The notes under the pieces: generated by a model
The model's database searches: none
What the model was told of the DNA's origin: nothing
The model's input: the letters and a program-made list of their open reading frames with translations, nothing else
Position numbers and translations under genes: made by a program
NCBI GenBank assembly: GCA_016187225.1
Contig: JACPKC010000010.1
Span: 3,541-67,540 of the forward strand
DNA: 64,000 bases
Direction of reading: 5' to 3'
Source: Candidatus Berkelbacteria bacterium
Lineage (GTDB): Bacteria; Patescibacteriota; UBA1384; JACPKC01
Shown: positions 7,091 to 42,146 of the stretch, piece after piece
How positions within the stretch are numbered: the first letter of the stretch is position 1
How the letters are laid out: the number at the start of each line of letters is the position of its first letter

Positions 7091-8616
7091 TTGCCATTCA
7101 AACAATCACCGAAGCCTCTAAGCTTCTCGAAGAAGGAAAAATCTCGTCGCGCGAATTCACTGAAGAACACCTCGAGCGTATTCGCGAACGCGATGAGAGC
7201 ATTCATGCCTATTTAACCGTTGATCGGGCAGGGGCGTTGGAGGCGGCCAGCAAATCCGATGAGCGGCGAGCCGAGGGTAAGAGCTTGGGGCCGCTCGATG
7301 GCATCCCGATCTCGATTAAAGACGTGATCGTCACCGAAGGGATCGAGACGAGGGCCGCCTCAAAGATGTTGGCGGGGTTTGTGCCGCCCTATGACGCGAC
7401 AGTGGTCGCGCGTCTCAAGGCGGCTGGCGCGGTCATTTTAGGCAAGGTCAACTGCGACGCCTGGGCGCACGGCTCAAGCACTGAAAATTCCGATTTCGGG
7501 CCGAGCAAAAATCCTTGGGATTTGGGTCGGGTGCCGGGCGGCTCCTCGGGTGGTTCGGCTGCGGCCGTGGCCGCGGGGCTGGGCTTGGCCTCGATTGGCA
7601 CCGATACCGGCGGCTCGATCCGCCAACCAGCGGCGCTCTGCGGTGTGACCGGCTTAAAGCCAACGTACGGCCGGTTGAGCCGTTATGGTCTCATCGCGAT
7701 GGCCAGCTCGCTTGATTGCCCCGGGCCACTGGCGCGAAGCGCCGAAGACTGCGCGTTGTTATTTGAAGTCATGGCTGGCCGCGATCTGTTGGATTCCACG
7801 AGTTTGCCCACCTCACCCCTTACCCCTTACGCCTCATCACCTGATCGGCCTTTGGCCGAGTTAAAAATCGGCTTGCCCAAAGAATACTTTGCCGAAGGTC
7901 TTGATTCGCAAGTCGGGGCGGCCGTTAATCAAGCCGTGAAAACGCTCGAAAAGTTGGGTGCCACGATCATTGATGTCAGCTTGCCCCTGACGCCTTACGC
8001 CTTACCCGCTTACTATGTGATTATGCCAGCCGAGGTTTCAAGTAACCTCGCTCGCTACGATGGCTTGCGCTATGGCTATAGTGAAATCCGAAATCCGAAA
8101 TCCGAAATCCGAAACGCCAATGAATTGATTATTAAAAATAGAAGCCTTGGCTTTGGCGCCGAGGCGAAGCGGCGGATTATGATGGGCACTTACGTGCTCT
8201 CTTCTGGCTACTACGACGCTTACTACAAAAAAGCGATGCAAGTTCGCACGCTGATCGTCGAGGATTTTCACCAAGTCTTTGATCAAGTCGACGTTTTGGC
8301 CACGCCAACCAGCCCGATTCCAGCCTGGAAGTTAGGCGAGAAGGTGAACGATCCATTGCAAATGTACCTGGCGGATATCTACACCGTCTCGGCCAATCTG
8401 GCCGGCATTCCCGGCATCTCAATTCCTTGCGGCTTTGTCACATCGTCATCCTTGACCGGAAGCGATAGCGTTCCGGATCGAGGATCTCAACCCCTTCCAA
8501 TTGGCCTTCAACTTCTGGGCAATCAACTAGATGAAGAAAAAATCTTGCGCGTCGCCATTGCCTATCAGCGCGCAACCGATTGGCATTTATATGAACCGAA
8601 ATTCGAAAATTTCTAA
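7084..8616 (+). CDS. gatA: Glutamyl-tRNA(Gln) amidotransferase subunit A (amidase family)
   Basis: The amidase signature GGSSGGSAAAVAAG, the Ser-cisSer-Lys triad context and the 510-aa length fit GatA. It contains low-complexity insertions. Confidence 0.9.
   Translation: MNLAIQTITEASKLLEEGKISSREFTEEHLERIRERDESIHAYLTVDRAGALEAASKSDERRAEGKSLGPLDGIPISIKDVIVTEGIETRAASKMLAGFVPPYDATVVARLKAAGAVILGKVNCDAWAHGSSTENSDFGPSKNPWDLGRVPGGSSGGSAAAVAAGLGLASIGTDTGGSIRQPAALCGVTGLKPTYGRLSRYGLIAMASSLDCPGPLARSAEDCALLFEVMAGRDLLDSTSLPTSPLTPYASSPDRPLAELKIGLPKEYFAEGLDSQVGAAVNQAVKTLEKLGATIIDVSLPLTPYALPAYYVIMPAEVSSNLARYDGLRYGYSEIRNPKSEIRNANELIIKNRSLGFGAEAKRRIMMGTYVLSSGYYDAYYKKAMQVRTLIVEDFHQVFDQVDVLATPTSPIPAWKLGEKVNDPLQMYLADIYTVSANLAGIPGISIPCGFVTSSSLTGSDSVPDRGSQPLPIGLQLLGNQLDEEKILRVAIAYQRATDWHLYEPKFENF
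8083..8115. repeat. Heptanucleotide microsatellite (GAAATCC) of about 4.7 copies inside the gatA CDS
   Basis: The sequence gaaatccgaaatccgaaatccgaaatccgaaac encodes SEIRNPKSEIRN. The unit length is not a multiple of 3. Confidence 0.9.
8533..8586. repeat. Direct repeat copy 1: the native gatA 3' end
   Basis: About 54 bp, gaagaaaaaatcttgcgcgtcgccattgcctatcagcgcgcaaccgattggcat, recurs at 9487-9540 with about 89% identity. Confidence 0.8.
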
Positions 8617-8785
8617 TGAACTTGTTGCATAATTCACTTTTTTGTTATTGCGAGCTACGCGAAGCAATCCCGCCATGGCGGGAGACCGTGGCGATGACAA
8701 ATTTAATTATGAAATGACTTCACTGTGCTATGATTGGAACCTCCTGGGAATAGACCTCCTGAAACACTTTTGATATCGTCAATTT

Positions 8786-9004
8786 ATGCCAACGCCAAAT
8801 TATCGGATCAACGTGTTGCTATCGAAGGATGCGCGAGCAGTGCTCGTGCGATCTGCAAAACGCGATCGAATTCCCACTGCCACTAAAGCCGCGCAACTAC
8901 TTGAACTAGCGTTGGATATTGAAGAGGATGCACTCTTTGATCTAGTTGCGTCCAACCGAGATTCCAAGGCTGTTCGATATTTACGTCATACCGAAGCATG
9001 GTAA
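8786..9004 (+). CDS. Type II antitoxin, ribbon-helix-helix (CopG/RelB/ParD-like)
   Basis: 72 aa. The N-terminal beta-strand RINVLLSKDARAVL followed by helices is typical of RHH antitoxins. A RelE/ParE toxin lies downstream. Confidence 0.6.
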   Translation: MPTPNYRINVLLSKDARAVLVRSAKRDRIPTATKAAQLLELALDIEEDALFDLVASNRDSKAVRYLRHTEAW

Positions 9005-9007
9005 CTA

Positions 9008-9168
9008 TGAACTCATTGCATAATTATGTTGGTAGCTACAACGGTTTCGTGCGGGTTGCACACCGAAAACGGCTCGTCACCGATACGGCAGCATCGTCTC
9101 CTCACCGTTTCCAGCGTTCGCACCGCCCGAATCTATCTCGCTCCTAAAAGAATTATGCAATGAGTTCA
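9008..9168. repeat. 161-bp element bounded by perfect 18-bp inverted repeats (tgaactcattgcataatt / aattatgcaatgagttca), lying between the antitoxin and toxin genes
   Basis: The arms are at 9008-9025 and 9151-9168. A third arm-like copy, tgaacttgttgcataatt, sits at 8617-8634 directly after the gatA stop codon. The internal sequence has further hairpin potential. Confidence 0.75.
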
Positions 9169-9441
9169 ATGTACGACTTGCGCTACCACCCTGACGTGGT
9201 GCGAATCGACATCCCGAAAATTTCAAGTACTTGGCGAGTAAAAATTTGCAAAGCCATTGAACAGCGCTTGGCTACTGAACCAGCACTTTATGGCAAACCA
9301 TTACGGCGATCATTAAAGGGTTATCGAAAACTCCGCGTTAGCGACTATCGTATTGTTTTTCGCATTGAAGGTCGAGTTGTTAAAATTCTAATGATTGCTC
9401 ACAGATCAACTGTCTATGAAGTAATTAAAAAACGGACATAG
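9160..9441 (+). CDS. RelE/ParE-family type II toxin
   Basis: 93 aa. The segment RVSDYRIVFRIEGRVVKILMIAHRSTVY matches the RelE/ParE core. The first ATG lies inside the right IR arm. An alternative start exists at 9169. Confidence 0.7.
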   Translation: MSSMYDLRYHPDVVRIDIPKISSTWRVKICKAIEQRLATEPALYGKPLRRSLKGYRKLRVSDYRIVFRIEGRVVKILMIAHRSTVYEVIKKRT

Positions 9442-9486
9442 GAAACGACAACACCGACGAGGTGGAAGACACGAGGTGTTGCCAAG

Positions 9487-9540
9487 AAGAAAAAATTTTA
9501 CGCGGCGCCATTGCCTATCAGCGCGAAAGCGATTGGCATC
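9487..9540. repeat. Direct repeat copy 2: a degenerate displaced copy of the gatA 3' end
   Basis: The sequence gaagaaaaaattttacgcggcgccattgcctatcagcgcgaaagcgattggcat has about 6 mismatches to 8533-8586. It would encode ...ILRGAIAYQREAIGI followed by a stop. Confidence 0.8.
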
Positions 9541-9612
9541 TAGAATCAGTTCCATATTAACTTGACGCCCACGGAATATGTATCTACATTTTGGTAGACA
9601 CAAAGGAACTAA

Positions 9613-9870
9613 ATGAAGACAAAAATTCAAAAATGGGGCAACAGTTACGCCGTTCGTCTGCCAAAAAAAATCGTCGTCAAGTTGAGCCTCAAGCTTGGCA
9701 GTCCGGTGATGATTGAAGAAGATCGGGGGCAACTGATCGTTAAAAAAGCTCCTCAAGAAAAAGCAGTCACCCACCAAGATTGGGAACAATTCTTGATCCC
9801 AACTGGCAGGAAAAAGAAGAGAAACGTAAGCGATCGTGTCGATGAAATCGTATATGGCGTATCTCGTTGA
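9613..9870 (+). CDS. AbrB/MazE/SpoVT-family small DNA-binding protein (antitoxin-like)
   Basis: The segment IQKWGNSYAVRLPKKIVVKL is the swapped-hairpin AbrB/MazE signature. Its stop codon overlaps the TTG start of the following large ORF. Confidence 0.7.
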   Translation: MKTKIQKWGNSYAVRLPKKIVVKLSLKLGSPVMIEEDRGQLIVKKAPQEKAVTHQDWEQFLIPTGRKKKRNVSDRVDEIVYGVSR

Positions 9871-9944
9871 TAGTTCGGTTTGGATTGCACTATATTTCAA
9901 AAACGATCCGCACTAAGCTTTATAAATACATTGAAGCTATTATT

Positions 9945-12863
9945 ATGTCGAAAGAAATATTTCGTCCAAAAGAGCCAGAAGAACTACAAGAGCAGTTAGG
10001 AAATGCTGAAGCCCAATATGGGGTTCCTCTCTATTCTAGCGAGGCTGAACGAGATCGTATGTTGCGCGCAACGGCTCAAGAGTTAGCAGAAGTGTATCCA
10101 TTAAAGTATCGAGCGTATAAAGCTTCACTTCTAGCCACTCGACGTAACACCGAACCGCCTCTAGAAGTTAGTAGATGGATTGGAGCAATTAATAAAATTG
10201 AACGCTACATTGCCAAATTAGACACCGAATCCAATCTAAAACTACGCGAACATCAACAAGCAGTTTTTGATGATCTCCTTGATTTTTTTGAGGCCGGTTA
10301 TCATTCTGGGTATATCAAACTACCAACCGGCGCGGGCAAGACGGCCATCTTTCTTAAGCTTGCGGAAGTAACAGGGTTAAGAACTTTAATCCTTGTCCCC
10401 TCCGTAGCCCTCGTTGAACAAACCATTGAGAAAATTCAAGAATACCAACTTGGTCTCAATGCTTCTGCGTATTATAGCCACGGAAAAAATTTGTCTGGTC
10501 AAATCGTTGTCTGCACTTACCAGAGTTTTGAGAAGTTTTTGCGTGAAAGCAATGCGCAGAATCAAAAATACGAGCTGATTGTCACTGATGAAGCTCACCG
10601 ATCTCTAACAGACGCAAGGAAAAAGGCCGTCAAAGAACTGACCGACGATAGTGTTGTGATCGCTCTAACGGCAACACCCGATTTCAATGAAAAAAAAACT
10701 GTCCGTAACTCCTATGGAACTTTGATTCACGAAATGACAATCAATGAGGCAATTCTAAGCGGGATTCTTTCAGGCGTTAGATGCGTTTACCTCAAGACCA
10801 AGGTCGATCTTAGCAAAATGCCCGCCACCCCGTCTGGCGACTATCGGGAAGATGAACTCGAGAAAATATTGAACATCACTGCAAGAAACAAGGCCGCTCT
10901 TTCTTTTATCGATCAGCAGGCGTTTCGTGATCAACGAGGGCAACTTAAGCGCACGGTTACTTTTTGCATTTCGATTAATCATGCCGAGAGAATTGCTCAA
11001 ATGGCTCAAGAACGCGGAATTGCGGCCGAAGCAATCCATAGTGAACAAACTCATGAAGAACGCAGCGCGATTCTTAAGCGCTACAGCAACGGTCAGACTC
11101 GCTTACTGGCTACGGTGACAGCGCTCGCCGAGGGGTGGGATGAACCCAAGACGGAGATTATTTTAAACCTCCGTCCGACTCTCTCGGCAGTCTTAGCTGA
11201 ACAACGATTGGGCCGGGGACTTAGAACTAGCCCAGGCAAGCGTGGCGCAATCGTAATCGACGTTTTAGATTTTGACGAAAGTCAAGATTCTCACAGTGCA
11301 GGCAGGCCAATCACCGCGCCTCACATTTTACATGGTAATGTGGTATTTCCACCTGGTTTAGACGATGGCCTATCTGGTCCTGGCGGCACACTGATTCGTA
11401 ATGATTTACCAGACATGGAAGGTGTTGAGGCAATTGTGGGGGAAAGAGACGTATACCAACTTTTTGAACGCCTCCAGGGTTCAGACGCGACCACTGCAGG
11501 TGAGAAAATTTTAAAGACCTTGGAAGATGTTAGGTCGATATTTACTCAAGCTGGTTATAGTAGCGATGATGCTCTAAGAAGACTTGCGGCGCTTTCAAAA
11601 GAAAATTTTTTAAAAACAAATTTTACTTCAAACCGCTTTCAGGGCACGGGACGGAGTCTTCTGCGCCGATATTTTATGGATATACTTGGCAAAACTCCTC
11701 CTTCGCAAATTTTATCGCCTGATCTTCAAGATTTCTTCAAAAATGTTCTTGGGGAACTTCGTAAACATGGTCGCATCTTGAATACGCCTAAGCCTGCGCT
11801 TCTCATACTTTTACGGCGTGCCGCCGGTCAGCCAGTATTCGAGGAAGCGCTCAAGATTCATGCGAATATTGCCCAGTCGAATCAGCAACCGGAACTTGCG
11901 ACACTAGATGAGTTTATGCAAGCTTACGATTTGCCTAAACCAGAAAAGGGTTATACAAGATCAGACTTTTTGCAATTTTTAAAAAATTTCATAAGAGATG
12001 ACGCAAGAAGCGATGGCGAATCGCCCAAAAGAAATCGTAAATTGCTCGATCAAAACCACCGAATCACTATACAGAGACTTATAGATGATCTTACCGCCGA
12101 GGAGAAACAGTCGAAATTGCAAGTAGATGTCTGCCAGATAATACGAGAACATCCATATCTCTTCGGAATGACTCTTGAAGAACTAAAACAATCTGACGCG
12201 CGAGCCAAAGATGGGGCGTTTTCAGTCGGATCACTGCTGAATACTCTCAAGATAAAAAATGATACAGAATTAAGGTCTCTCCTGCGCGTTGGTTTTGATG
12301 CTATAGAAATCAGTCAATTGCGAGATAGAGCCAGAGAATCACTCAAGTTAGATTTTGAAAAGAAAAAATTTTCGCGTTTTATTACGCCAGAACGTTTTTC
12401 GCAGTTAACTTTTTTGCTTTTTGGTCAAGAACTCCCTGGCGAGTCTATCTATACATTCTTTGGGTTACCACGCAACCCAAGTCGTGAACAGTTTATTTCT
12501 CTAATCGATAGCATTATGGATGAGGTCTTTGCTAAACCGTTTTCACCCATGGATCCAGAGATCGTCATTCCTGCTATTAAAGATTCTCTAGGTCAGCAAG
12601 CAGTTTGGCCAAGATTTGAAGATTTGGGGAACGTGCGTTTACGTTCAGGATCAATTGATCCGAATGATGCGTCTTTGCGCACACTCTATGATCTCGTCGA
12701 TCGGTGGAATCTAGCTAGAACGGGCCAGGTAATAGAGCTTACGCGGGATGACTATGAACGATTTAAACGCGTATTCAAAACAGCATTGCCTAGCTTAGGT
12801 GATAAGAAAACTGCTATGGCTGATTTGCTTCGAGCGAGAATGAAGCATAGAGAAGGAAAATGA
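9945..12863 (+). CDS. Superfamily-2 helicase (ResIII / DEAH-type) with a C-terminal domain of about 500 aa of unknown function
   Basis: The helicase motifs are present: motif I LPTGAGKT, motif II TDEAHRS, motif III LTATP and motif VI QRLGRGLR. The ORF track starts at a TTG at 9867. The ATG at 9945 (MSKEIFRPK) is the more likely start. The C-terminal half is helical with no recognisable motif. Confidence 0.7.
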   Translation: MSKEIFRPKEPEELQEQLGNAEAQYGVPLYSSEAERDRMLRATAQELAEVYPLKYRAYKASLLATRRNTEPPLEVSRWIGAINKIERYIAKLDTESNLKLREHQQAVFDDLLDFFEAGYHSGYIKLPTGAGKTAIFLKLAEVTGLRTLILVPSVALVEQTIEKIQEYQLGLNASAYYSHGKNLSGQIVVCTYQSFEKFLRESNAQNQKYELIVTDEAHRSLTDARKKAVKELTDDSVVIALTATPDFNEKKTVRNSYGTLIHEMTINEAILSGILSGVRCVYLKTKVDLSKMPATPSGDYREDELEKILNITARNKAALSFIDQQAFRDQRGQLKRTVTFCISINHAERIAQMAQERGIAAEAIHSEQTHEERSAILKRYSNGQTRLLATVTALAEGWDEPKTEIILNLRPTLSAVLAEQRLGRGLRTSPGKRGAIVIDVLDFDESQDSHSAGRPITAPHILHGNVVFPPGLDDGLSGPGGTLIRNDLPDMEGVEAIVGERDVYQLFERLQGSDATTAGEKILKTLEDVRSIFTQAGYSSDDALRRLAALSKENFLKTNFTSNRFQGTGRSLLRRYFMDILGKTPPSQILSPDLQDFFKNVLGELRKHGRILNTPKPALLILLRRAAGQPVFEEALKIHANIAQSNQQPELATLDEFMQAYDLPKPEKGYTRSDFLQFLKNFIRDDARSDGESPKRNRKLLDQNHRITIQRLIDDLTAEEKQSKLQVDVCQIIREHPYLFGMTLEELKQSDARAKDGAFSVGSLLNTLKIKNDTELRSLLRVGFDAIEISQLRDRARESLKLDFEKKKFSRFITPERFSQLTFLLFGQELPGESIYTFFGLPRNPSREQFISLIDSIMDEVFAKPFSPMDPEIVIPAIKDSLGQQAVWPRFEDLGNVRLRSGSIDPNDASLRTLYDLVDRWNLARTGQVIELTRDDYERFKRVFKTALPSLGDKKTAMADLLRARMKHREGK

Positions 12864-12878
12864 AAGCAATCTTGAACG

Positions 12879-13322
12879 ATGTCTCTTTACCATAAAAAAC
12901 AAGCCGAGCCTTCAATGATCGGCAATATCTTTATTCAACTCGGGCGGGCTCTAGCTGGCTTGTGGCGGTTGATTTTTGGCTCAAAAGCAAAAAAACTCGA
13001 TGCGGCGAGGATGCTCGCCCAATTTGCCGAGATTGAGCGTCTGCTCGATTCGGGCGACTCAATCCACGCCTCGCAGGCGATCGTCCGGGCCGATAGTTTT
13101 TTAGATGCGGTGATGCGCCAAGTCGGCGGGCAAGGCAGTTCATTTGGCGAACGAGTCAGAAGCCTTGAAGCGCGTTTTGAGCGAAGCCTCTATCAGCAAA
13201 TCTGGGAGGCCCACAAGCTGCGCAACTTAATCGCCCATGAACATCCGCAGATTACTGTCGGTCAGGCACGATCAGTGTTACAGACATTTAGAAAAGCAGC
13301 TTCTGTTTTAGGAGCGTTCTAA
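12879..13322 (+). CDS. Hypothetical protein with a HEPN-like Rx4H motif
   Basis: 147 aa. KLRNLIAHEH fits the HEPN R-x4-6-H signature near the C-terminus. There is an N-terminal hydrophobic segment. Confidence 0.4.
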   Translation: MSLYHKKQAEPSMIGNIFIQLGRALAGLWRLIFGSKAKKLDAARMLAQFAEIERLLDSGDSIHASQAIVRADSFLDAVMRQVGGQGSSFGERVRSLEARFERSLYQQIWEAHKLRNLIAHEHPQITVGQARSVLQTFRKAASVLGAF

Positions 13323-13723
13323 TGATGAGTAGCGAAGTAGTAAGTAGCGAAGTAGCAAAGTTTGTTCGAACCGATGGCTTCGAGAGTTTGGTACTTTGGC
13401 AAAAGGCGATGGACCTTGTGACGGAAATTTATCGGTTCAGTGAACACTTTCCAAAAACAGAAGTCTATGGATTGACATCGCAACTACGAAGAGCAGCCAG
13501 TTCAATCCCGGCCAATGTTGCTGAAGGGTACGGTCGGTCATCAATCAAGGAAGAGCAACGCTTTCTTTCGATTGCCTATGGCTCACTCATGGAAGTTGAG
13601 ACCTTCTTAATTTTGGCTCAAAGGCTGGGCTATCTAAACGATCACCAATTTGTCCAACTAAATACGCTTCGTGGAGACGTCGGTAGCTTATTGATTGGTT
13701 ATAGAAGGAGTAAGCAGGAGTAG
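13322..13723 (+). CDS. Four-helix-bundle protein (23S rRNA intervening-sequence protein family, PF05635/TIGR02436-like)
   Basis: The segment LWQKAMDLVTEIYRFSEHFPKTEVYGLTSQLRRAASSIPANVAEGYGR is the family signature. The N-terminus carries a 15-bp tandem duplication at 13329-13358. Confidence 0.7.
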   Translation: MMSSEVVSSEVAKFVRTDGFESLVLWQKAMDLVTEIYRFSEHFPKTEVYGLTSQLRRAASSIPANVAEGYGRSSIKEEQRFLSIAYGSLMEVETFLILAQRLGYLNDHQFVQLNTLRGDVGSLLIGYRRSKQE

Positions 13724-30517: not shown

Positions 30518-30761
30518 CGCAGTTAGTGAGGTTCGAATGACCCACGAGGGTTAATAGAAGCAAAAAGCGTATGCAGATTTGCAAACGATGCAACTGCATC
30601 GTTTTTGTTTGTTACAACGGGCTTCGACTTTGAACTTTGATAATTGACGCCAGCATAACTTGGTTTTTGAATTGGTTGAAAAATGAGCCTCGCCGGTTTT
30701 AGACCGGCCGCCACTGCGAGCGTTATCGCAGATATTTGAAGTTTCAAACTTCTCTTTTTGA

Positions 30762-30796
<35 letters not shown>

Positions 30797-31042
30797 TGCG
30801 CCTAACACATGCAAGTCGAGTGGGTTTAGACCCACGGCAGACGGGTGAGTAATGGCAAGGAACGTACCACGAGGTCGGGCATAACCCGCCGAAAGGCGGG
30901 ATAATTCCCGATACGCCTCCGGGTGAAAGTTTTTCGCCTCGTGAGCGGCCTTGCTCCTATCAGCTTGTTGGTAAGGTAACGGCTTACCAAGGCTCTGACG
31001 GGTAGCTGGTCTGAGAGGACGACCAGCCACAATGGCACTGAG

Positions 31043-31074
<32 letters not shown>

Positions 31075-31075
31075 T

Positions 31076-31111
<36 letters not shown>

Positions 31112-31471
31112 GACACCGCGTGGAGGAAGACGGTCTTCGGATTGTAAACTCCTTTTCTCTGAGACGATTATGACGGTACCAGAGGAATAAGCACCGGCTA
31201 ACTACGTGCCAGAAGCCTCGGTGATACGTAGGGTGCAAGCGTTATCCGGAATTATTGGGCGTAAAGAGCTCGTAGGTGGCTTTGTTCGTTCCGTGTTAAA
31301 TCTCCAGGCTCAACTTGGAGGCCGCACGGAAGACAGCAAAGCTCGAGTCCAGCAGGGGTCAGCGGAATTGGCGGTGTAGCAGTGAAATGCGTTGATATCG
31401 CCAGGAACACCGATGGCGAAGGCAGCTGACTAGGCTGGTACTGACACTAAGGAGCGAAAGCGTGGGGAGCG

Positions 31472-31509
<38 letters not shown>

Positions 31510-31580
31510 TTGCTGACTAGGTATTCGAAGTATCGACCCTTTGTGTACCGAAGCTAACGCGTCAAGTCAGCCGCCTGGGA

Positions 31581-31622
<42 letters not shown>

Positions 31623-31623
31623 T

Positions 31624-31661
<38 letters not shown>

Positions 31662-32075
31662 AGCGAGGAACCTTACCAAGATTTGACATCTCCGGAACCC
31701 TGCAGAAACGCGGGGGTGCCCTTCGGGGAGCCGGATGACAGGTGATGCACGGTCGTCGTCAGCTCGTGTCGTGAGATGTACGGTTAAGTCCGCAAACGAG
31801 CGAAACCCTCATCCTGTGTTGTATTTCACGGGAGACTGCCTCGTTCAACGGGGAGGAAGGTGGGGATGACGCCAGATCAGCGTGTCTCTTACATCTTGGG
31901 CGACACACGTGCTACAATGGCGACAACAGCGGGTCGCAAAGCTGTAAAGCAGAGCTAATCCCTTAAATGTCGCCTCAGTTCGGATTGAGGGCTGAAACTC
32001 GCCCTCATGAAGCCGGAATCGCTAGTAAACGCAGATCAGCCATGCTGCGTTGAATACGTTCTCGAGCCTTGTACA

Positions 32076-32618
32076 AAATAGAATGCGCCATTCCTTGTCA
32101 GTGGCGAGTCCGTTCAAATCGGACCTGGCCGCCAGAGACGGTCAGAAGCGAACGCGCAGTCCTGCGGAGCGATCCACAGGGTGAAGGGTGCTAGTAGCAG
32201 TATCCAGCTTGAATTTTATAAACGGCGTGATCGGTGGACGATCCTGCGTACAATTGGAGAAGTCATCTCTGTATTTTTCCGGTCGCGTATTTGGAATCGA
32301 GATGGATGCGAATTGCACTGACAAGACAATGGGAGAGCTTATAGACTCCTCTATGTGTATTCACGTGGGGGTAGATTCATCGTAAGATGGTATCGATGGG
32401 CTATAAGCAGTCTGCAGAGTCCATAGTACCCGGAGTCTCAACAGTTGTTGAGATCGAAGGGGAAGGGACTAATCCAGCCATAAAAGGATGGAGGAACTCA
32501 AACAGTTGTGCGAACAGATTGAGTTCCTTCGGGGCTAGAGCTTCGCTAGGGTACGGGAAAACCGTGTGCCCAGCGGCGACGGAACTCATGGTAGTAATGC
32601 CTGTGCAGTATCCGGGAA
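32076..32618 (+). mobile_element. ORF-less intron-like insertion in the 16S rRNA (after the CCTTGTACA block)
   Basis: About 540 nt separate ...ccttgtaca from ...caccgcccgtcac, which are contiguous in canonical 16S. The boundaries are approximate. Confidence 0.7.
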
Positions 32619-32708
32619 CACCGCCCGTCACGTGAGCCGAGTTGGTAATACCCAAAGTCCCACTTTTGTGGGCCGACGGTAGGATCAGTAAGGAGCACGA
32701 AGTCGTAA

Positions 32709-33430
32709 AATTGTTGCGACCTTGCTAGGTAACCGGCAAGAAAAACCCTGCTGTATCGGTGAAACCCCTCCTCTCTAGTAGAATAAAGATGTGAGGACAA
32801 TACCGAGGGAACCCATGCCTTCAATGGGACTCCGTAGAGACTACACGCAGGCTCCTTTGCAGGAGATTGAATCGTATCTCGTTGGCGCAAGTCACGATGG
32901 TACTTGGAATCAGCGTCACAAGACTTTTCGCTATACACAGCGAGAACGCTCTTGGCTTGAGCTGGTTCAGCGGCTACTCGGTAGCCTGAACAGACGGAGT
33001 TGGCTGTACCGTGAAGGTCAACAACGCACCGTCTGGGCACTAGAAACGACATATTGTCCTTCAGGTGACTCGTGGCACTTATTGCCACATAGTCAAATAG
33101 AATGGATTGGGTACATTCGTGGTTTCTTTGATGCTGAAGGTGGCTTACCGAAGAATGCGACAAGTCGGTTTTATTTACAATTTGTACAGAAGAACCGCAG
33201 GAAGCTCGATATAATTCGCTCGACTTTGGAGGAGTTGGACATCCCATGTGGAGCCCTTCATATACCCAGTAAGCGAGTTGATCCAAATTATTGGCGCTTT
33301 TTCGTCTCGACACGGTCACATCGAAAGTTCGCCGACGTAATTGGATCTTGGCATCCACGCAAGTCGTACATTCTCTCTGGAAGGATGAAGATATAGTCCA
33401 TGCCCTGTAGTAATATTGGGAACACCATGA
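32709..33430 (+). mobile_element. Intron in the 16S rRNA 3' region carrying a LAGLIDADG homing-endonuclease ORF
   Basis: About 720 nt are inserted between gaagtcgtaa and acaaggtatccctagggg. The boundaries are approximate. Confidence 0.75.
32791..33396 (+). CDS. LAGLIDADG homing endonuclease (intron-encoded)
   Basis: The 201-aa ORF lies inside the 16S insertion. The segment IGYIRGFFDAEGG matches the LAGLIDADG motif. Confidence 0.7.
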   Translation: MRTIPREPMPSMGLRRDYTQAPLQEIESYLVGASHDGTWNQRHKTFRYTQRERSWLELVQRLLGSLNRRSWLYREGQQRTVWALETTYCPSGDSWHLLPHSQIEWIGYIRGFFDAEGGLPKNATSRFYLQFVQKNRRKLDIIRSTLEELDIPCGALHIPSKRVDPNYWRFFVSTRSHRKFADVIGSWHPRKSYILSGRMKI

Positions 33431-33569
33431 ACAAGGTATCCCTAGGGGAATCTGGGGATGGATCACCTCCTTTCTAACGGAATTTTGAGAGCTTTGCTCT
33501 CGACCGTAGGTCGGTCTCATTTTTCAACCATTCAGCAACCAAGAGTCGTCCGGAGGGACGATTTTTGGT

Positions 33570-34052
33570 TTGAGGAGATGTGAAGTGAAATTACGCATTC
33601 GAAACGGAACAAAAATTTATTTCAACAGATGGTTCGCGGTAACGATTTTTGGGCTTCTGATTGCAAGTATTGCCATTTGGATTTTATCGAAGCCAAAATC
33701 AGCGATTCAGAGCGAAGTAGTTCAAGCCGCGGCTGAAGCACAAGCCAATATCGCGCGTGTTTTGGCGGCGCATGTTGATTGGACGAGCACCGATTTTCGC
33801 GTTGCCAACCAGGATTCAATCAACTGGCAGAGATGCAAACTCGAAGTCAATGCCGCTCAATTCGACACCGGCTATAGTGTCTTTGTCGATCAAATCAAAA
33901 TCGGTGAAACACTCGCGATTCCGCACGACAGTTTGCAAGCAAAAAACGGTGCGGTTTATAATTATTCAACCAATCCCCCTCACCGCTTTACGATTCGTTG
34001 TCAAAATGCCGACACTCGCATGGGTATCTTTATCGGTTCGGTCGCCCAGTGA
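33570..34052 (+). CDS. Hypothetical membrane-anchored protein (N-terminal TM helix plus an extracytoplasmic domain)
   Basis: 160-aa ORF about 95 bp after the 16S 3' end. It has one N-terminal TM segment, FAVTIFGLLIASIAIWIL. Confidence 0.4.
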   Translation: MRRCEVKLRIRNGTKIYFNRWFAVTIFGLLIASIAIWILSKPKSAIQSEVVQAAAEAQANIARVLAAHVDWTSTDFRVANQDSINWQRCKLEVNAAQFDTGYSVFVDQIKIGETLAIPHDSLQAKNGAVYNYSTNPPHRFTIRCQNADTRMGIFIGSVAQ

Positions 34053-34084
34053 CCCTAACAGGAGGGTGTGCTATTCTGAAAACA

Positions 34085-34486
34085 ATGAACCAAGCTCTCA
34101 AACTTGGCTGGATTAGTGTTCTCGTCTGGTGGTATCAGATTGTGCCTGGGTTGCTTGTGCATCATGCCCGGCTTTTCTTCTTGATGGTGATTGACTATTT
34201 TTCATTTGGTATTCTCGCGAGCACTCTTTTTGAGCCGTGGAAGCGCGATGAGATCTCAACGGAAAACTTAAGTTTGCAAGATAGAATTCAAGTTTTTGGC
34301 CTCAACTTAATCACTCGTTTCTTTGGTTTTCTCATGCGATCGGCCGCTATCACGGCTGGCGTCATCATCCTTCTGGCGTTGGCTTTAGTCGCTTGTTTGG
34401 TTGCCGTCTTTTGGCTTATGGCGCCCTTGCTTGCACTCATTCTCGGCGTCAATGGCATCCTGACCATCCTTGGGGGCGAGCGATGA
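34085..34486 (+). CDS. Hypothetical integral membrane protein (about 4 TM helices)
   Basis: Hydrophobic throughout. Its stop codon overlaps the ATG of the following Clp-like gene (ATGA). Confidence 0.45.
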   Translation: MNQALKLGWISVLVWWYQIVPGLLVHHARLFFLMVIDYFSFGILASTLFEPWKRDEISTENLSLQDRIQVFGLNLITRFFGFLMRSAAITAGVIILLALALVACLVAVFWLMAPLLALILGVNGILTILGGER

Positions 34487-36993
34487 TTCGTTTTGAGGGC
34501 GCGCTTGGCATTGAGCTTGCTCGACTTCAGATTCATCTTGAATCAAAATCGGCTGTTATGCTTCGATCGCTAATTATTGCCGGTGCGAGTTTTGCTCTGT
34601 TATATCTGTGTCTGACGCTTTTTAATCTCATCCCGGTCTGGCCAACTTTGTTTGGTTTCGTTGAACTGGGTTTTGGTATAGGTTTCTTATGGGGAATGCG
34701 CGAACTCTATTTGACTTGGGTATTGCATCACACCTTGCCGTCAGTTGCGCTTGCTCTGCGCACCCAGCACCCTGATTGGTTAACCACGACTAATTTTCTC
34801 GACTACGTTTCACCAGAATTGGGCAGAATTTTTTTACGAGCGCGGACTGAAGCGGGAGTTCAAGTTGATACCTTGATTAAAGCTAGTCTTACCGAACCCG
34901 TGATCAATTCGCTCCTCGCGCGCGCCGGGTTCTTAACGCCGTTAGCCACTGAAACGGAAACTACCTCGGCGCCAAAATTGCCCGAACCGATTACCGCACC
35001 CGATGCTTTACTTGCTTACGCCGCCCAAGAAGCAATTGTGCTCAAGCAGGCAGTGATCGACGTTAATCACTTTCTCTACGTGCTCGCGGAGCATTATCAG
35101 CCGGTTGCCGATCGCTTATTTGCTCACAATCTTGAGCTCAATGATTTAGCCGAAGCGATCGCGTGGTATGAACGCCATCGCCATCGCGTTCAGCGCAGAT
35201 TCTTTTGGGAGCGGGGGAAGGTGGGTATTTATGGCATTGGTCGAGATTGGTCGGCTGGGTACACGCCTACCTTGTCGCACTTCTCGATCGATCTCGCGCG
35301 CTATCTCCAGGATGCAGACTTGCAAACACAGATCGTTGGTCGTGAGCAAGTGATCGATCAGATCGAGCAGATTTTAGCGAGTGAGACGCGCACGAACGTA
35401 CTTTTAGTTGGTCGCGTTGGCGTTGGTAAGCGCACCGTGGTGAATGGGCTCGCGGCGCGAATTGCGTCGGGCGAGGTTTCTCGCAGTTTGGCAAATAAGC
35501 ATGTCCTCGAGCTCGACGTTGCCCAAGTGTTGGCCGGACTTGGAGACAGGGGCGCGATTGAGTTTCGCTTGATGCGCGTTTTACGCGACGCCGAGCGTGC
35601 TGGCAACATCATTTTATTTGTCAATAATATCCACACCCTGCTTTCTTCGGCCTACGGCAAGGTTGGCTCGATTAACGCGGGCGAAGTACTCGCGCCGTTT
35701 TTACGCTCTGGGCGGATTCAGCTTATTGCCGCAACAACGCCAATGGACTATCACGCAATCATTGAAGCCCAGGGCACGGTGAGAGATTCTTTTCGGCGAA
35801 TCGAGGTTCAGGAACCAGCGCCAACCGAGGCGGTGATACTTGCCGAAGATGTGGCTCTTCATCTTGAAGCGCGCCACGGTGTCTTTATTGCTTTGCCGGT
35901 CATCAAAAAGGCGGTTGAGTTTGGCCATCGCTATGTGCAAGGCGCGCCTTTGCCAGAAAGTGCGCTCACGCTTTTGGAGGCGGCGGCAATTCGAGCCTCA
36001 AATGAACAACGTGAATTGGTGACGTTTGAAGATATTGATGTGGTGGTTTCGGAGCAGACACGTGTGCCGGTCGGCGAGGTTCAAATGAGCGAGAAAGCTC
36101 GCCTCTTAAATTTGGAAGATGTTTTACATGATCGCGTGATCGGCCAAGATGAGGCAATTGTGGCGGTGGCAAGCGCCTTGCGCCGAGCGCGGTCTGGCCT
36201 AGGAACCGGCAAACGACCAATTGGCAGTTTCCTTTTTTTGGGGCCGACGGGCGTTGGCAAAACCGAGACGGCGCGCGCCTTGGCGGAAACGTATTTTGGG
36301 AGTGAAAAATCAATGGTGCGCCTCGATATGAGCGAGTTTCAAAGCCCAGCCTCGCTTGCGCGATTGATTGGCGCGCCAACTGAAGCGCAACAGGCGGGGA
36401 GTGGCCAGCTTACAAGCGCGATTAAGGATGCGCCGTTCAGTCTGATCCTTCTCGATGAGGTTGAGAAATCCCATCCAAACATTCTCAACGTGTTTCTGCA
36501 GATCCTCGATGATGGCCGGGTGACTGATGGTCGAGGTGAGACCGTTGATTTCACGAACGCAATCATCATTGCGACTTCGAATGCCGGCTCCGAATTTATT
36601 CGGAGCCACATTCAGGCAGGTGAAAATATGGAACAATTGCGCGACGAACTTTTGAATGCACTTCAGAGCCAAGGTTTATTCAAGCCAGAGTTTCTTAATC
36701 GATTTGACGCAGTGGTCGCCTTCAAACCGCTTTTACCAGATCAATTGATGCAAATAGTTGATTTACAGCTTAAGGGTTTGAATGCGCGTCTGGCAGAGCA
36801 AGATGTGCAAATTTCACTCACCGAGGCGGCTAAAAAACGCTTGGCCGAACTTGGTTATCAGCCGGAATTTGGCGCGCGAGCGTTGCGACGAGTTATGCAA
36901 GATCGAGTTGAAAACATGATTGCCTCGCGCTTGCTGGCCGGTGAAATAAAGCGTGGCCAGACCCTCGCCATCGACGCATCAGATCTTGAATGA
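34483..36993 (+). CDS. Membrane-anchored ClpB/ClpC-like AAA+ ATPase with a degenerate first nucleotide-binding domain
   Basis: The N-terminus has about 3 TM helices. NBD1 aligns to ClpB but has Walker A GRVGVGKRT and Walker B ILFVNNIH, where NN replaces DE. NBD2 is intact, with GPTGVGKTE and LILLDEVEKSHPN. The C-terminal domain is Clp-type. Confidence 0.75.
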   Translation: MIRFEGALGIELARLQIHLESKSAVMLRSLIIAGASFALLYLCLTLFNLIPVWPTLFGFVELGFGIGFLWGMRELYLTWVLHHTLPSVALALRTQHPDWLTTTNFLDYVSPELGRIFLRARTEAGVQVDTLIKASLTEPVINSLLARAGFLTPLATETETTSAPKLPEPITAPDALLAYAAQEAIVLKQAVIDVNHFLYVLAEHYQPVADRLFAHNLELNDLAEAIAWYERHRHRVQRRFFWERGKVGIYGIGRDWSAGYTPTLSHFSIDLARYLQDADLQTQIVGREQVIDQIEQILASETRTNVLLVGRVGVGKRTVVNGLAARIASGEVSRSLANKHVLELDVAQVLAGLGDRGAIEFRLMRVLRDAERAGNIILFVNNIHTLLSSAYGKVGSINAGEVLAPFLRSGRIQLIAATTPMDYHAIIEAQGTVRDSFRRIEVQEPAPTEAVILAEDVALHLEARHGVFIALPVIKKAVEFGHRYVQGAPLPESALTLLEAAAIRASNEQRELVTFEDIDVVVSEQTRVPVGEVQMSEKARLLNLEDVLHDRVIGQDEAIVAVASALRRARSGLGTGKRPIGSFLFLGPTGVGKTETARALAETYFGSEKSMVRLDMSEFQSPASLARLIGAPTEAQQAGSGQLTSAIKDAPFSLILLDEVEKSHPNILNVFLQILDDGRVTDGRGETVDFTNAIIIATSNAGSEFIRSHIQAGENMEQLRDELLNALQSQGLFKPEFLNRFDAVVAFKPLLPDQLMQIVDLQLKGLNARLAEQDVQISLTEAAKKRLAELGYQPEFGARALRRVMQDRVENMIASRLLAGEIKRGQTLAIDASDLE

Positions 36994-37439
36994 TTGACCA
37001 CTCATCTTCATTCTTTCTCTATTACCGTATACAATCATCTCGCAGCCGGAACTCCCCGTTCGATAAAAAATTTTGAGCGGGACGAGGGAGCCCGGACGAG
37101 AGGATTTTTGAGGCAGAAAATTGATCGTTGTACCTCTCATCTGCATCGCCCGCACGTCGGGCCATCGATCAATTTTCTGCCTTCCAGTAAGATTTCGGAG
37201 TTGGTTACGGGGTAAGTAACCATGTGTCTGGCGACTGTCAGACATGCGTGAAGTAGTAGACATCAGGCTATTTCACGCCTCCGATTTTTACCTAGGTCGG
37301 AATGCCGAAATAAGTATGAGTACATGTACATTGCGCTCACGGCATTTCGACCTTTCTCTCGGCCTCGTTCTCGCCACGGGGCCATTTTCTTGTTTACAGA
37401 AGGATTTTCCGCTATAGTTTTTGCGTTTAGGGCGTGTAG

Positions 37440-37516
37440 CTCAGTCGGTTAGAGCGCGTCACTGATAATGACGAGGTCCCAGGTTCGAATCCTGGCACGC
37501 CCACCAAAATCTGACT
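37440..37516 (+). tRNA. tRNA-Ile (anticodon GAU)
   Basis: A cloverleaf can be drawn with acceptor stem gggcgtg/cacgccc and anticodon loop cuGAUaa. The 3' CCA is encoded. This is the typical ITS tRNA. Confidence 0.9.
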
Positions 37517-38311
37517 TTACTCGTCATCCTTCTGGAGTTCGAGGCCGAGGTCGCTGAGAAACTCCTCGATCAGTCGGGCCGAACTCTCTCCGACGCCAAA
37601 CACTTCTCTTAGTGCTTTTGGAGTGTAGGTGTCGGCAAGGACACGGAGAGTCGCATCCGGAGCATTGTTCCAGAGTGGTGGTCTGTTTCTTTCCCAATCT
37701 ATAGATGTTTCACATTGCCTAGGAATTTGAAGAGCAAAGGCGAGTGGGCCAAATATCTTCAGTTTTTTTACGACGTCTAGAATGCTTTCATCCAGCATCT
37801 GAATGTCAGCTTCAGCCGAGTAGAAGTTTGAGGCGGACGGAATTCGTCCGATCTCTACCTTATCCTTTGCTCGATCTCTGAGGTATCTTGATATTCCCGC
37901 ATGCTTTAGTTTGATACCATTGAATACTAATCTTTTTATTCTCCGTAGTCTGCTCACACTCATCCCTTTTATGCGAAGCAGGTCGGTAGCGCTTGTTTCT
38001 AGAAGCTGCTGAATGGTGTAAATGCCACCATCTTGCAGTACTCGGATCATATTTCTTCTGCAAGTATCGGGGTAGCCAGGTAAAGTTGAGTCTTCTAGTA
38101 ACAAGGTTGGTGGAGTTACTTTGTCCCAAGCCACCCTCGCCAGGACAAAAACCACTCCATCTACTCGTTGATTATACTGGATGGTAAAGTAGTGGTCTTC
38201 TGGATTAGCTCCCAGGAACACCTCTATCGCTTTGGATAGATCCTCCACTTCGCCGACTGAAGCTATGACCTCGAACCTTGGCTGGTTGTCAGGGTTACAT
38301 TGAGATTCCAC
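37517..38311 (-). CDS. Hypothetical DNA-binding protein with two helix-hairpin-helix motifs (RNA polymerase alpha-CTD-like)
   Basis: TIQQLLETSATDLLRIKGMSVSRLRRIKRLV and the C-terminal LADTYTPKALREVFGVGESSARLIEEFL resemble HhH motifs. The gene abuts the tRNA-Ile 3' end in convergent orientation. Confidence 0.4.
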   Translation of the reverse strand: MESQCNPDNQPRFEVIASVGEVEDLSKAIEVFLGANPEDHYFTIQYNQRVDGVVFVLARVAWDKVTPPTLLLEDSTLPGYPDTCRRNMIRVLQDGGIYTIQQLLETSATDLLRIKGMSVSRLRRIKRLVFNGIKLKHAGISRYLRDRAKDKVEIGRIPSASNFYSAEADIQMLDESILDVVKKLKIFGPLAFALQIPRQCETSIDWERNRPPLWNNAPDATLRVLADTYTPKALREVFGVGESSARLIEEFLSDLGLELQKDDE

Positions 38312-38420
38312 GTTGATTTCCTCCTATTGAAAAATAATTTTTCAAAGAACTAGTCAATTTATACCAGAAACTCTTCGATTTGTTAACAACTTAGGTAAGA
38401 ACTTACGCTATACTCAAATT

Positions 38421-38894
38421 GTGTTATTGACACCACATATTTTGGTCGGTGCAACTGTTGGCGTCGTTGCCCAAGATCCAGTAGTTGGGTTTCTTGGTGG
38501 AGTTGCGAGCCACTTCGTTTTGGATGCAATTACGCACACCGATCCGGGTACTTGGCACTTCGATGAGCCATTTCCTCAAAAACTCGACGAACGTGATCTG
38601 ACAGTTGGTTTTACCGATGCAGCGGTCGCGTTCTTTAGTTTTCTGCTTTTAGCCGGCGTCGCGCCCCTCGTTGCGCCAGGCCCACTCGCAGGCGCTCTCG
38701 GTGGTTTGTTACCCGATGTGATTGGTCTTGCCCCGCTTTTTATACCTAAACTCGCGACCGTCAAGGGGCTCGACCGTTACTATGCCTTTACTCACCGCAT
38801 TCATCGCACGGCGCCGCCTTCAAAATGGCTACTTGGCATTTTCACGCAAATTATTGTGATAGGATTTGCCGTATGGTACTTGCTCGGCTCATAG
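38421..38894 (+). CDS. Hypothetical membrane protein, possibly related to DUF457 metal-dependent hydrolases
   Basis: 157 aa with a hydrophobic core. SHFVLDAITH loosely resembles the DUF457 His/Asp motif. Confidence 0.35.
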   Translation: MLLTPHILVGATVGVVAQDPVVGFLGGVASHFVLDAITHTDPGTWHFDEPFPQKLDERDLTVGFTDAAVAFFSFLLLAGVAPLVAPGPLAGALGGLLPDVIGLAPLFIPKLATVKGLDRYYAFTHRIHRTAPPSKWLLGIFTQIIVIGFAVWYLLGS

Positions 38895-39124
38895 TATTTA
38901 TGCTAACTTTCGGTGTCGGGCTTGGGTTGATTCGGAGCGCCGAGTGGTGTGTGCGCAATTTCGGCACGATGGACTGGGCGGAAAAACATCTGGGCCCTGG
39001 CGGCAGTTATTCTGCTTGGAAACTTTTTGGGGTGATTACGATTATTCTAGGATTCCTCTACGCAATCGGGCAGTTCAATGTTACGCCACAGGATGCAGGG
39101 ATACTCTCAACTGCGCCTTAACCA

Positions 39125-39200
39125 GGGCCAGTAGCTCATCTGGCAGAGCGCCACATTTGCAATGTGGAGGTACGGGGTTCGAATCCCCGCTGGTCCACCA
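39125..39200 (+). tRNA. tRNA-Ala (anticodon UGC)
   Basis: The acceptor stem gggccag/ctggtcc includes the G3:U70 Ala identity pair. The anticodon loop is uuUGCaa. CCA is encoded. Confidence 0.9.
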
Positions 39201-39291
39201 AAATCTGACTTTCAGAAAATTGACCGGCGCGATTTTTTCTAGAGTTATGATAAGATTATTTCACATTGAAATAACCAGAGAGGAGATATTA

Positions 39292-39510
39292 ATGACTCTT
39301 ACGAAAGAAGATTTAAAAGAACTTCGATCGATTGTGAAAGAAGAAGTATCCAACGGAATTGGAATGACCGAAGGGCGGTTGAATGACAAAATCGAAACTT
39401 CCGAAGGGCGGTTGAATGACAAAATCGAAACTTCCGAAGGGCGGTTGAATGACAAAATCGAAACTTCCGAAGGGCGGTTGAATGACAAAATCGAAACAAA
39501 CTTCTATTGA
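39292..39510 (+). CDS. Small protein with four tandem 11-aa repeats (TSEGRLNDKIE)
   Basis: The track ORF continues upstream to 38866. Met at 39292 follows an RBS-like gagagg, with ATG 10 nt downstream. The repeats are encoded by the 33-bp tandem array. Confidence 0.45.
   Translation: MTLTKEDLKELRSIVKEEVSNGIGMTEGRLNDKIETSEGRLNDKIETSEGRLNDKIETSEGRLNDKIETNFY
39368..39496. repeat. 33-bp tandem repeat of about 3.9 copies (ccgaagggcggttgaatgacaaaatcgaaactt)
   Basis: The copies are perfect except for the last few nt of copy 4. The array lies in the coding frame of 39292-39510. Confidence 0.9.
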
Positions 39511-39805
39511 ACAGTCAAAAAATGAAATCATCTCCATTTTGAGTCGAGAGATTAACGATTTAGCCGAGATTAATCATGCGATCATTGAGCGAGTGGACAA
39601 AATTTCGGAGCTCGAAAAACGGATTATTCGAATTGAGAATAAGGTCGGCATAGCCGGTTGATTTTGATGTGCTCCTCGATATCGCCTCCATAGAACTGAT
39701 ATCGATCTCGAATCTAATGAGTTTAATCGGCTCTTTCATCTCACTTATAATAAACGGGAGGTAAAGAAGAGCCAGAAAATTTATCAACTCCTCAACCCAT
39801 CAGTA

Positions 39806-40027
39806 ATGAGTCGGTTAATTGATGCTCGTTATGAGTTGGGTAAATTTGAACTCCTGTTCCGCGATCGAATCATGCTCATAAGCGTGCCCAACATGCTCGA
39901 TTTAAAATATACTAATTTTAAGAAAAAAATCGAGATCGACCATCGAGATATTACTATCGTACAGGATGAATTGGAAAAGCTACTTCATTATGTGGGTGAC
40001 ATCGTTCCAAAACTTGACCGACCATAA
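39806..40027 (+). CDS. Hypothetical protein
   Basis: 73-aa ORF with no recognisable motif. Confidence 0.25.
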   Translation: MSRLIDARYELGKFELLFRDRIMLISVPNMLDLKYTNFKKKIEIDHRDITIVQDELEKLLHYVGDIVPKLDRP

Positions 40028-40088
40028 ATACTTGACATCCATGAGAGAGAGGTAGGATTCAATTAGAATGAGTTGAATAAGGGGGAAT

Positions 40089-40790: not shown

Positions 40791-40826
40791 GGCTCCTGTG
40801 CTAAACGCTAACTATCAGGCGTAATA

Positions 40827-40860
40827 CAAAACACACCGGCCAGAGCCGGTGTGTTTTGTT
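40827..40860. terminator. Bidirectional rho-independent terminator between convergent genes
   Basis: The hairpin aaaacacaccggc-caga-gccggtgtgtttt has A/T runs on both sides. Confidence 0.7.
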
Positions 40861-40873
40861 GTTGTTTAGTGGA

Positions 40874-41269: not shown

Positions 41270-41367
41270 AAAATTTCTCTCCTTCTTCTTTTTAAAGTGT
41301 AAAGAATGAAGAATAAAGAGTAAAGAATACATTTATTACTCGACAAGTTCTGGCTAAGAGTGTCAAA

Positions 41368-42132: not shown

Positions 42133-42146
42133 TTTACAATTATGAT

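Follow-up and report, generated by a model that had tools for sequence, protein, structure and literature searches.

REPINs are REP doublets that form hairpins and are mobilised by RAYT transposases. ERIC/IRU sequences of enterobacteria and Rickettsia palindromic elements are found in transcribed intergenic regions or beside and inside ORFs. Bacterial MITEs are short, lack a transposase, have terminal inverted repeats and a long stem-loop, and are recognised from filled and empty sites (PMC3184786, PMC10969869). The hairpins of Correia elements are co-transcribed and can alter the expression of adjacent genes, through promoters at their ends and through RNase III cleavage (PMC2649163, PMC2229807). 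Patescibacteria are not mentioned in a 2024 MITE review (PMC10969869), and a full-text literature search on MITEs and Candidate Phyla Radiation bacteria gave a single paper, which is unrelated. Small non-autonomous mobile elements are barely documented in these bacteria.

The locus described here lies in a window of 64,000 nucleotides from Candidatus Berkelbacteria bacterium (contig JACPKC010000010.1, assembly GCA_016187225.1), and all coordinates refer to that window. Two palindromic units, A and B, stand next to each other, one upstream of a toxin-antitoxin operon and one inside it. With a probability of about 0.7, they represent a non-autonomous, MITE-like palindromic element whose family is absent from Rfam and from the literature searched.

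Units A and B and the neighbouring genes

Unit B is a palindromic element of 161 bp (9008-9168), detected by arm search, inverted-repeat search, and folding. Its left arm, TGAACTCATTGCATAATT, occupies 9008-9025 on the plus strand and begins 3 nt past the antitoxin stop codon (TAA 9002-9004). The right arm at 9151-9168, on the minus strand, is the exact reverse complement and ends 1 nt ahead of the toxin ATG (9169). The 125 bp between the 18-bp arms are imperfectly palindromic. The sequence matches the first-pass annotation, which described perfect 18-bp inverted repeats around 125 bp of structured DNA. No other close-range inverted repeat in the window is as long as unit B, whose complementarity extends imperfectly beyond the arms, to 29 nt per arm (86% complementary). 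The whole unit forms an end-to-end hairpin of -57.2 kcal/mol (z = -5.1), and the interior is self-complementary even with 36 nt trimmed from each end (z = 3.3).

An arm search with up to 3 mismatches finds four matches in the 64-kb window, compared with 0.07 expected from shuffles, and none of 100 shuffles reaches four. All four copies fall within 552 bp, and a mismatch-tolerant search of the remaining 63 kb finds no others. The arm-like copy reported earlier after gatA is present at 8617-8634 on the plus strand (TGAACTTGTTGCATAATT, 16/18 to the B arm), and its first base directly follows the gatA stop codon (TAA 8614-8616). It had been taken for a stray third arm; it is in fact the left arm of unit A, a degenerate unit of 106 bp (8617-8722) between the gatA stop and the toxin-antitoxin promoter, recognised by arm search and folding. 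Its partner is a fourth arm at 8705-8722 on the minus strand (TGAAGTCATTTCATAATT, also 16/18 to the B arm), with which it pairs, and the two match each other at 14 of 18 positions. Unit A likewise folds into an end-to-end hairpin (-31.9 kcal/mol, z = -2.25). Its right end resembles the left end of unit B (71% over 41 nt), and the two units may therefore have opposite orientations. Unit A looks like an older, shorter, and degenerate copy of the unit B family, 290 bp upstream of B.

The coding capacity of unit B is limited to overlapping reading frames of 36-49 codons, and those short ORFs of the elements that were checked have no exact match in the protein collection. A promoter and terminator scan finds nothing in or at either unit, and no terminator-like T-run is present. 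An outward-facing promoter at the right end of B was considered and rejected, as only weak -10-like hexamers are visible by eye. Unit A is flanked by ATG and CTG.

The antitoxin gene (8786-9004, plus strand) encodes a protein of 72 aa, assigned to the ribbon-helix-helix (RHH) type by homology, an AlphaFold2 model, and fold matches. It corresponds to NCBI protein HYW32_02790 (Candidatus Berkelbacteria bacterium). It has no match in Pfam or NCBIfam. A word-indexed search retrieved the antitoxin itself alone, and the family of 175 representatives, with proteins of about 73 aa, was obtained by exhaustive search. Identity with the genes directly upstream of toxin homologues in relatives is 46-54%. 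In the AlphaFold2 model (pLDDT 91.6), an extended N-terminus leads into two helices. The best fold matches are mostly ribbon-helix-helix proteins (Arc, CopG, TacA, AmrZ, ParD), with E-values that are non-significant because the domain is tiny. The neighbour-gene identity, the two-helix model, and the predominant fold make the original label of RHH antitoxin reasonable.

The RelE/ParE-family toxin gene (9169-9441, plus strand) is intact and encodes 90 aa. It matches Pfam ParE_toxin (2e-8) and TIGR02385 (3e-6). An alignment of 30 family members shows 26 invariant residues, all of which this toxin retains. There are 703 homologues; among the matches listed, most have about 90 aa and align from the ATG at 9169 (MYDLRYHP...). 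Gene calls in two other assemblies also place the start at this ATG. The first-pass annotation put the first ATG of the toxin inside the right arm. An ATG does occur there, at 9160-9162, but the homologues and gene calls put the real start at 9169, just outside the arm. Exact look-up of the GatA protein and of a 93-aa version of the toxin returned no record.

In relatives, gatC and gatA are followed, with no gap after gatA, by a gene for 141-144 aa, an optional four-helix-bundle gene, and then gatB. The window contains about 4.3 kb of extra DNA after gatA. This block comprises unit A, the toxin-antitoxin pair with unit B, a gatA remnant, a MazE-like gene, and a helicase gene of 998 aa. The 57 nt of the gatA region that precede its final 27 nt are duplicated (8533-8589 and 9486-9542, 89% identity). 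Since the 4.3 kb are absent after gatA in relatives, the toxin-antitoxin pair and the hairpins sit in an acquired block.

The locus in relatives and other metagenomes

The junction between antitoxin and toxin was compared with that of four toxin homologues (64-73% toxin identity), which are family-level relatives and not sister strains. The two genes overlap in L125 and L126 (both ATGA) and in L172 (TAATG), and they are 10 nt apart in L124. The gap in the window is 164 nt, and 161 nt of it are unit B. An uninterrupted junction in relatives had been proposed as a test of an insertion, and the overlap in three of the four relatives and the 10 nt in the other agree with it. Without unit B, the window reads ...GCATGG TAA CT(A) ATG TACGAC..., which is a relative-like junction, and the predicted empty-site allele is GCATGGTAACTATGTACGAC (or one A more or fewer). 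The comparison supports unit B as an insertion at the point where stop and start codons meet in a compact RHH-RelE/ParE operon. One of the two initial suggestions was a miniature inverted-repeat element within the toxin-antitoxin operon, and it agrees with the uninterrupted junctions in the four relatives and with an element of identical arms in an unrelated context elsewhere.

Three of the relatives (L124, L125, L126) have sequence upstream of the antitoxin gene and were aligned with the window (alignment A6). All three have TTGACA, 17 nt, TACACT, 6 nt, and ATG, and their spacer contains the invariant ACACTTTTGA within GATACACTTTTGATACA. The window has a corresponding arrangement at 8751-8785 on the plus strand. 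TAGACC (8751-8756) and TATCGT (8774-8779) are the putative -35 and -10 hexamers, separated by a 17-nt spacer with ACACTTTTGA (8764-8773), and 6 nt lie between the latter hexamer and the ATG. This geometry would fit a leaderless transcript. The region conserved across the family is likely to be its promoter/operator, which is intact in the window.

Assemblies of the same organism from two Logan runs were retrieved by exact-protein look-up. One contig (L001) is identical to 8088-9167 of the window and ends there, and two others (L002, L003) begin at 9139. The Logan assembly graph is presumably set at k = 31. With this setting, the breaks at 9167 and 9139 would mean that the 31-mer at 9138-9168, the right end of B (TCGCTCCTAAAAGAATTATGCAATGAGTTCA), is preceded and followed by at least two different sequences, and it behaves as a branching k-mer node in both Logan assemblies. 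Its outer edge (9168) is the end of the inverted repeat. This suggests that another copy of the right end of B, with another interior and another flank, exists in those communities.

An exact scan for the 18-mer in JGI metagenome contigs gives 39 loci, 38 of which are solitary chance matches in unrelated sequence. The remaining contig, L133 (Ga0182027_10754852, 1,024 bp), contains a 163-bp unit with a perfect 18-mer at each end, in opposite orientations. Genes for a membrane-anchored protein and a DUF5652 protein lie beside it, and no toxin-antitoxin gene is present on the 1-kb contig. DUF5652 is found largely in Patescibacteria. The ends of B and the L133 element align by Blast over 37 nt at 92% and 36 nt at 83%, including the identical 18-nt arms, and the first 15 subterminal nt of one end match at 12 of 15 positions. 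With the more similar end taken as the right end, this end adjoins the ATG of a gene in both cases. Both elements share the flanks ...TA[TGAACT...AGTTCA]ATG..., so that TA precedes and ATG follows; the flanks can be read as a duplication of a 1-nt A or of a 3-nt ATG, the TG of which also belongs to the repeat. The interiors are unrelated (cross-comparison z about 1), yet each is self-complementary, with z of 3.3-4.2 for B and 7.1-8.5 for L133, the lower values (3.3, 7.1) being those with 36 nt trimmed per end. The terminal 18 bp pair perfectly in both, and the folding z of the L133 element is -10.6. L133 has one unit only, with no second in the following 730 bp.

Other collections yielded solitary or unrelated matches. 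No metagenome match other than L133 has an inverted partner within 4 kb. A distant partner in L163 is due to chance, since the N-terminus of an ORF is encoded by the arm at this locus and the stretch between the two matches contains no transposase. A degenerate arm pattern with 14 fixed bases was searched in 596 Gb of genome contigs, where a few hundred chance matches are estimated, and those among the matches listed are single and unrelated. L020 alone among the listed matches has an inverted partner nearby (3 mismatches); it is an AT-rich inverted repeat of another kind. Viral contigs contain one solitary arm match. BLAST of unit B against plasmid and phage collections gives no match, and Rfam at two thresholds returns just a meaningless mir-471 match (E = 2.6). 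An autonomous element or transposase with these termini was found neither among the window ORFs scanned nor near any metagenome match.

Possible identities of the units and effect on the toxin

The units have the features of bacterial MITEs in several respects. At 106 and 161 bp, they are within the limit of about 400 bp and contain no transposase gene. Terminal repeats and stem-loops are present, and the arms match each other fully in B and L133 and at 14 of 18 positions in A. Filled and empty sites can be compared at the four family-level loci (64-73% toxin identity). Three copies are known, namely two adjacent ones at a single locus, one of them degenerate, and L133. The family termini consist of the 18 bp TGAACTCATTGCATAATT, invariant in the two full copies, and similarity continues for about 15 nt further in. 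The interiors differ completely between copies, yet each is self-complementary and gives one long hairpin. Conserved ends with unrelated interiors are unusual for a MITE family and bear more resemblance to attC sites or REPINs. For the units of this genome, we infer both mobility and a transposition mechanism.

The other initial suggestion was that the arms are operator half-sites for the RHH antitoxin, and a related possibility is a conserved leader; either would have evolved in place for autoregulation. RHH repressors bind inverted repeats, the antitoxin is RHH-like by model and fold matches, and one unit sits upstream of its gene. However, the relatives lack the arms and their core TTGCATAATT; no arm sequence is found in related Berkelbacteria loci, even at 4 mismatches. 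They conserve instead ACACTTTTGA between -35 and -10, a motif without similarity to the arms or the core, which the window retains at 8764-8773. The arms are outside the promoter: 28 nt separate unit A from the -35 box that follows it, and unit B is downstream of the antitoxin gene. Half-sites that are 70-125 bp apart with a palindromic interior do not have operator geometry, and identical arms occur on L133, where there is no toxin-antitoxin gene. Autoregulation through the arms can hardly be credited. Integron-like sites are also very improbable. In that case, the units would be attC-like recombination sites, folded as single strands, which delimit an antitoxin and a toxin cassette and are moved by a site-specific recombinase. 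The conserved ends, the hairpin interior variable in length and sequence, and the outermost ...GAAC / GTTC..., with the AAC/GTT triplets that characterise attC R boxes, are consistent with such sites. The units start 0-3 nt past a stop codon, B and L133 end at a start codon, and one strand folds better in both full copies (-74.6 vs -54.9 and -75.8 vs -62.8 kcal/mol). The better-folding strand is antisense to the abutting gene in both, a lead that is not significant. The right end GTTCAAT fits attC GTTRRRY at 6 of 7 positions, and the left end TATGAAC misfits RYYYAAC, of which AAC alone fits. The folded strand of attC sites has an unpaired central spacer and extrahelical bases, neither of which interrupts the perfect 18-bp terminal helix here. 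The window ORFs scanned include no integrase or tyrosine recombinase, L133 carries one unit and no array, and in relatives the antitoxin and toxin form one overlapping operon, not two cassettes.

A structured regulatory hairpin of RNA or DNA, such as a terminator, an insulator, or a processing site, would be kept for its effects on the gatA and toxin-antitoxin transcripts and spread by recombination or horizontal transfer, without transposition. The very stable hairpins, the suggestive positions, one just behind gatA and one separating the antitoxin gene from the toxin gene, and the intactness of the latter two genes are in line with this. It is nevertheless unlikely: there is no Rfam family match and no terminator-like T-run, the interior sequence is not conserved between copies, and identical termini at an unrelated locus of another organism require a mobility mechanism. 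This reading also coincides to a large extent with that of a MITE whose side effects include changes in expression. Retron ncRNA, type III antitoxin RNA, and IS200/IS605 guide RNA were rejected, as the ORFs scanned near the locus include no reverse transcriptase or TnpB/IscB and there is no Rfam match. Quite improbable, too, is an undescribed class of Candidate Phyla Radiation hairpin elements, with invariant 18-bp termini and a freely replaceable palindromic interior. Such elements may move as folded single strands by a site-specific mechanism (attC-like or IS200/IS605-like), may have start-codon ATGs as their targets, also in leaderless genes, and may be tolerated because a frame from the left-flank ATG carries ribosomes through the hairpin to the authentic start. 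Three hints, none decisive, point in this direction: the shared flanks with an end at a start codon, the same strand folding better, and an open frame in all copies. The frame from the flanking ATG extends over 33-52 codons in all three copies (joint shuffle probability about 0.004); other frames are also fairly open, and this lead is not significant.

As a MITE-like element, unit B would have inserted in an operon with a pre-insertion junction of about ...TGG TAA CT ATG TAC.... Unit A would have inserted earlier, between the gatA stop and the promoter of the operon, and then decayed. In relatives, toxin translation is probably coupled to that of the antitoxin through stop and start codons that overlap or adjoin. 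In the window, the toxin ATG is at the foot of the 18-bp perfect helix (hairpin of about -55 to -57 kcal/mol as mRNA), and the 9 bases ahead of it, at the position of a ribosome-binding site, are paired inside the helix. In relatives, the start is preceded by the GG of a conserved Trp codon; here, this GG stands before an ATG at 9007 at the left edge of the element. Unit B thus probably lowers or re-routes toxin translation. Toxin synthesis should fall relative to that of the antitoxin or need read-through ribosomes. These could start at 9007, follow a 47-codon frame through the hairpin to the stop codon TAA 9145-9147, and resume translation 21 nt further on. A lower toxin-to-antitoxin ratio would be harmless and either outcome tolerable, which would account for the persistence of the insertion beside two intact genes.

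The element would add a new family in a poorly covered group. The locus also represents a natural experiment, in which the translational coupling of a type II toxin-antitoxin system is replaced by a structure of about -55 kcal/mol at the stop/start junction. Invariant termini with unrelated palindromic interiors could point to the mechanism of recognition and movement. In practical terms, the start codon of the toxin is corrected and the real promoter/operator motif of the toxin-antitoxin family is identified. The exact stop/start placement and the conserved ends with replaceable palindromic interiors are curiosities of an otherwise ordinary kind of finding.

Comparison with known elements

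REPINs: The units resemble REPINs in having two conserved short inverted sequences, a less conserved spacer, and a hairpin formed by the whole unit, and in being non-autonomous. In contrast, the 18-mer is no palindrome in itself, it lacks GTAG, and the window shows no RAYT gene.

Integron attC sites: The AAC...GTT ends, the interior variable in sequence and length, and the position between the stop codon of one gene and the start codon of the next are shared with attC sites. Units A and B differ in that they have no bulged bases, unpaired spacer, cassette array, or integrase.

ERIC/IRU and Rickettsia palindromic elements: These are likewise imperfect palindromes of 100-150 bp that form a single long hairpin (PMC3184786). 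They are conserved over their full length, whereas conservation here covers the terminal 18 nt and, more weakly, about 15 nt further.

Correia elements: The Correia elements (CREE/NEMIS) of Neisseria are also about 100-160 bp long, have terminal inverted repeats, and lie beside gene starts (PMC2649163, PMC2229807). They differ in their conserved core, IHF site, and TA duplication, none of which is seen in A and B, and there is no sequence similarity.

Chunjie and Nezha: Chunjie of Geobacter uraniireducens (cited in PMC10969869) and the cyanobacterial Nezha (PMC3184786) are likewise shorter than 250 bp and without a transposase. They have terminal inverted repeats and a predicted long stem-loop, lie between operon genes, and were recognised through filled and empty sites. 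Both occur in many copies per genome, their interiors are conserved, their direct-repeat duplications are clear, and their parent IS is known. In contrast, units A and B belong to a family of three known copies with unrelated interiors and an ambiguous duplication (1-nt A or 3-nt ATG). Functionally, units A and B come closest to MITEs inside operons such as Chunjie, to Correia elements, and to the ERIC and Rickettsia palindromic elements.

The DNA between gatA and gatB

In the related Berkelbacteria gat loci (L167–L171), gatA is immediately followed by a gene of 141–144 aa, optionally by a four-helix-bundle gene of the 23S_rRNA_IVP family, and then by gatB. Compared with these relatives, the window carries about 4.3 kb of additional DNA after gatA (8617–12878). 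The site after gatA is, by this comparison of gene order, an insertion hot spot in the window genome. The window also has a four-helix-bundle protein gene (13322–13723; TIGR02436/23S_rRNA_IVP family) between gatA and gatB, an arrangement shared by one of two relatives at the species level that were compared (L167/L168). The encoded protein weakly resembles the DGR accessory protein Avd, and none of the neighbouring ORFs scanned stood out as a reverse transcriptase.

The 3′ part of gatA occurs in two direct copies, 8533–8589 and 9486–9542 (57 nt, 89% identity), of which the second is an out-of-context remnant encoding EEKILRGAIAYQRESDWHLESVPY followed by a stop. The 953 bp from copy to copy contain unit A (8617–8722) and unit B (9008–9168), both copies of the MITE-like hairpin element, and the toxin-antitoxin pair, comprising the RHH-type antitoxin gene (8786–9004) and the RelE/ParE-family toxin gene (9169–9441). 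This layout is as expected from single-crossover integration of a small circular DNA with a gatA 3′ fragment, or from an island that brings a replacement gene end. The stretch that separates the toxin stop codon from the gatA remnant (9442–9485) contains a short hairpin, CAACACC...GGTGTTG, that lacks a T-run. The toxin-antitoxin transcript could terminate here, or the acquired block could have its boundary here. Within gatA, the 7-bp unit GAAATCC is present in four tandem copies (8083–8110) encoding SEIRNPKSEIRN. The Logan assembly contig L001, from the same organism, starts inside this repeat, which suggests that the repeat varies in length or is ambiguously assembled.

Promoter geometry of the toxin-antitoxin family

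The toxin-antitoxin family has the conserved promoter TTGACA-17-TACACT-6-ATG, with ACACTTTTGA invariant (window 8751–8785 and the upstream regions of the related loci L124, L125, and L126). The distance from the end of the −10 box to the antitoxin ATG is 6 nt in three of the four aligned loci, and this short gap suggests leaderless transcripts. The membrane-protein gene on an unrelated metagenome contig (L133) has the identical geometry once its element is removed: TATCAT, 6 nt, ATG.

The rRNA region

The 16S and 23S rRNA genes (region 30755–47635) are 10.7 kb apart. Between them are tRNA-Ile, tRNA-Ala, and protein-coding genes for a ClpB-like ATPase, Yip1, DUF1761, a short-chain dehydrogenase, and PEBP. 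A group II intron domain match (32372–32468) lies directly past the 16S gene, and the start of a LAGLIDADG endonuclease ORF (45490–46206) falls inside the 23S match, at its 3′ end.

MazE-like gene and helicase

A MazE/AbrB-type antitoxin-like gene (9613–9870) shares 4 nt with the beginning of a ResIII/DEAD-box helicase gene (9867–12863). The helicase gene, of 998 aa, occupies the place expected for a MazF-type toxin gene, and the two may form a defence module or be an unusual case of an antitoxin paired with a helicase.
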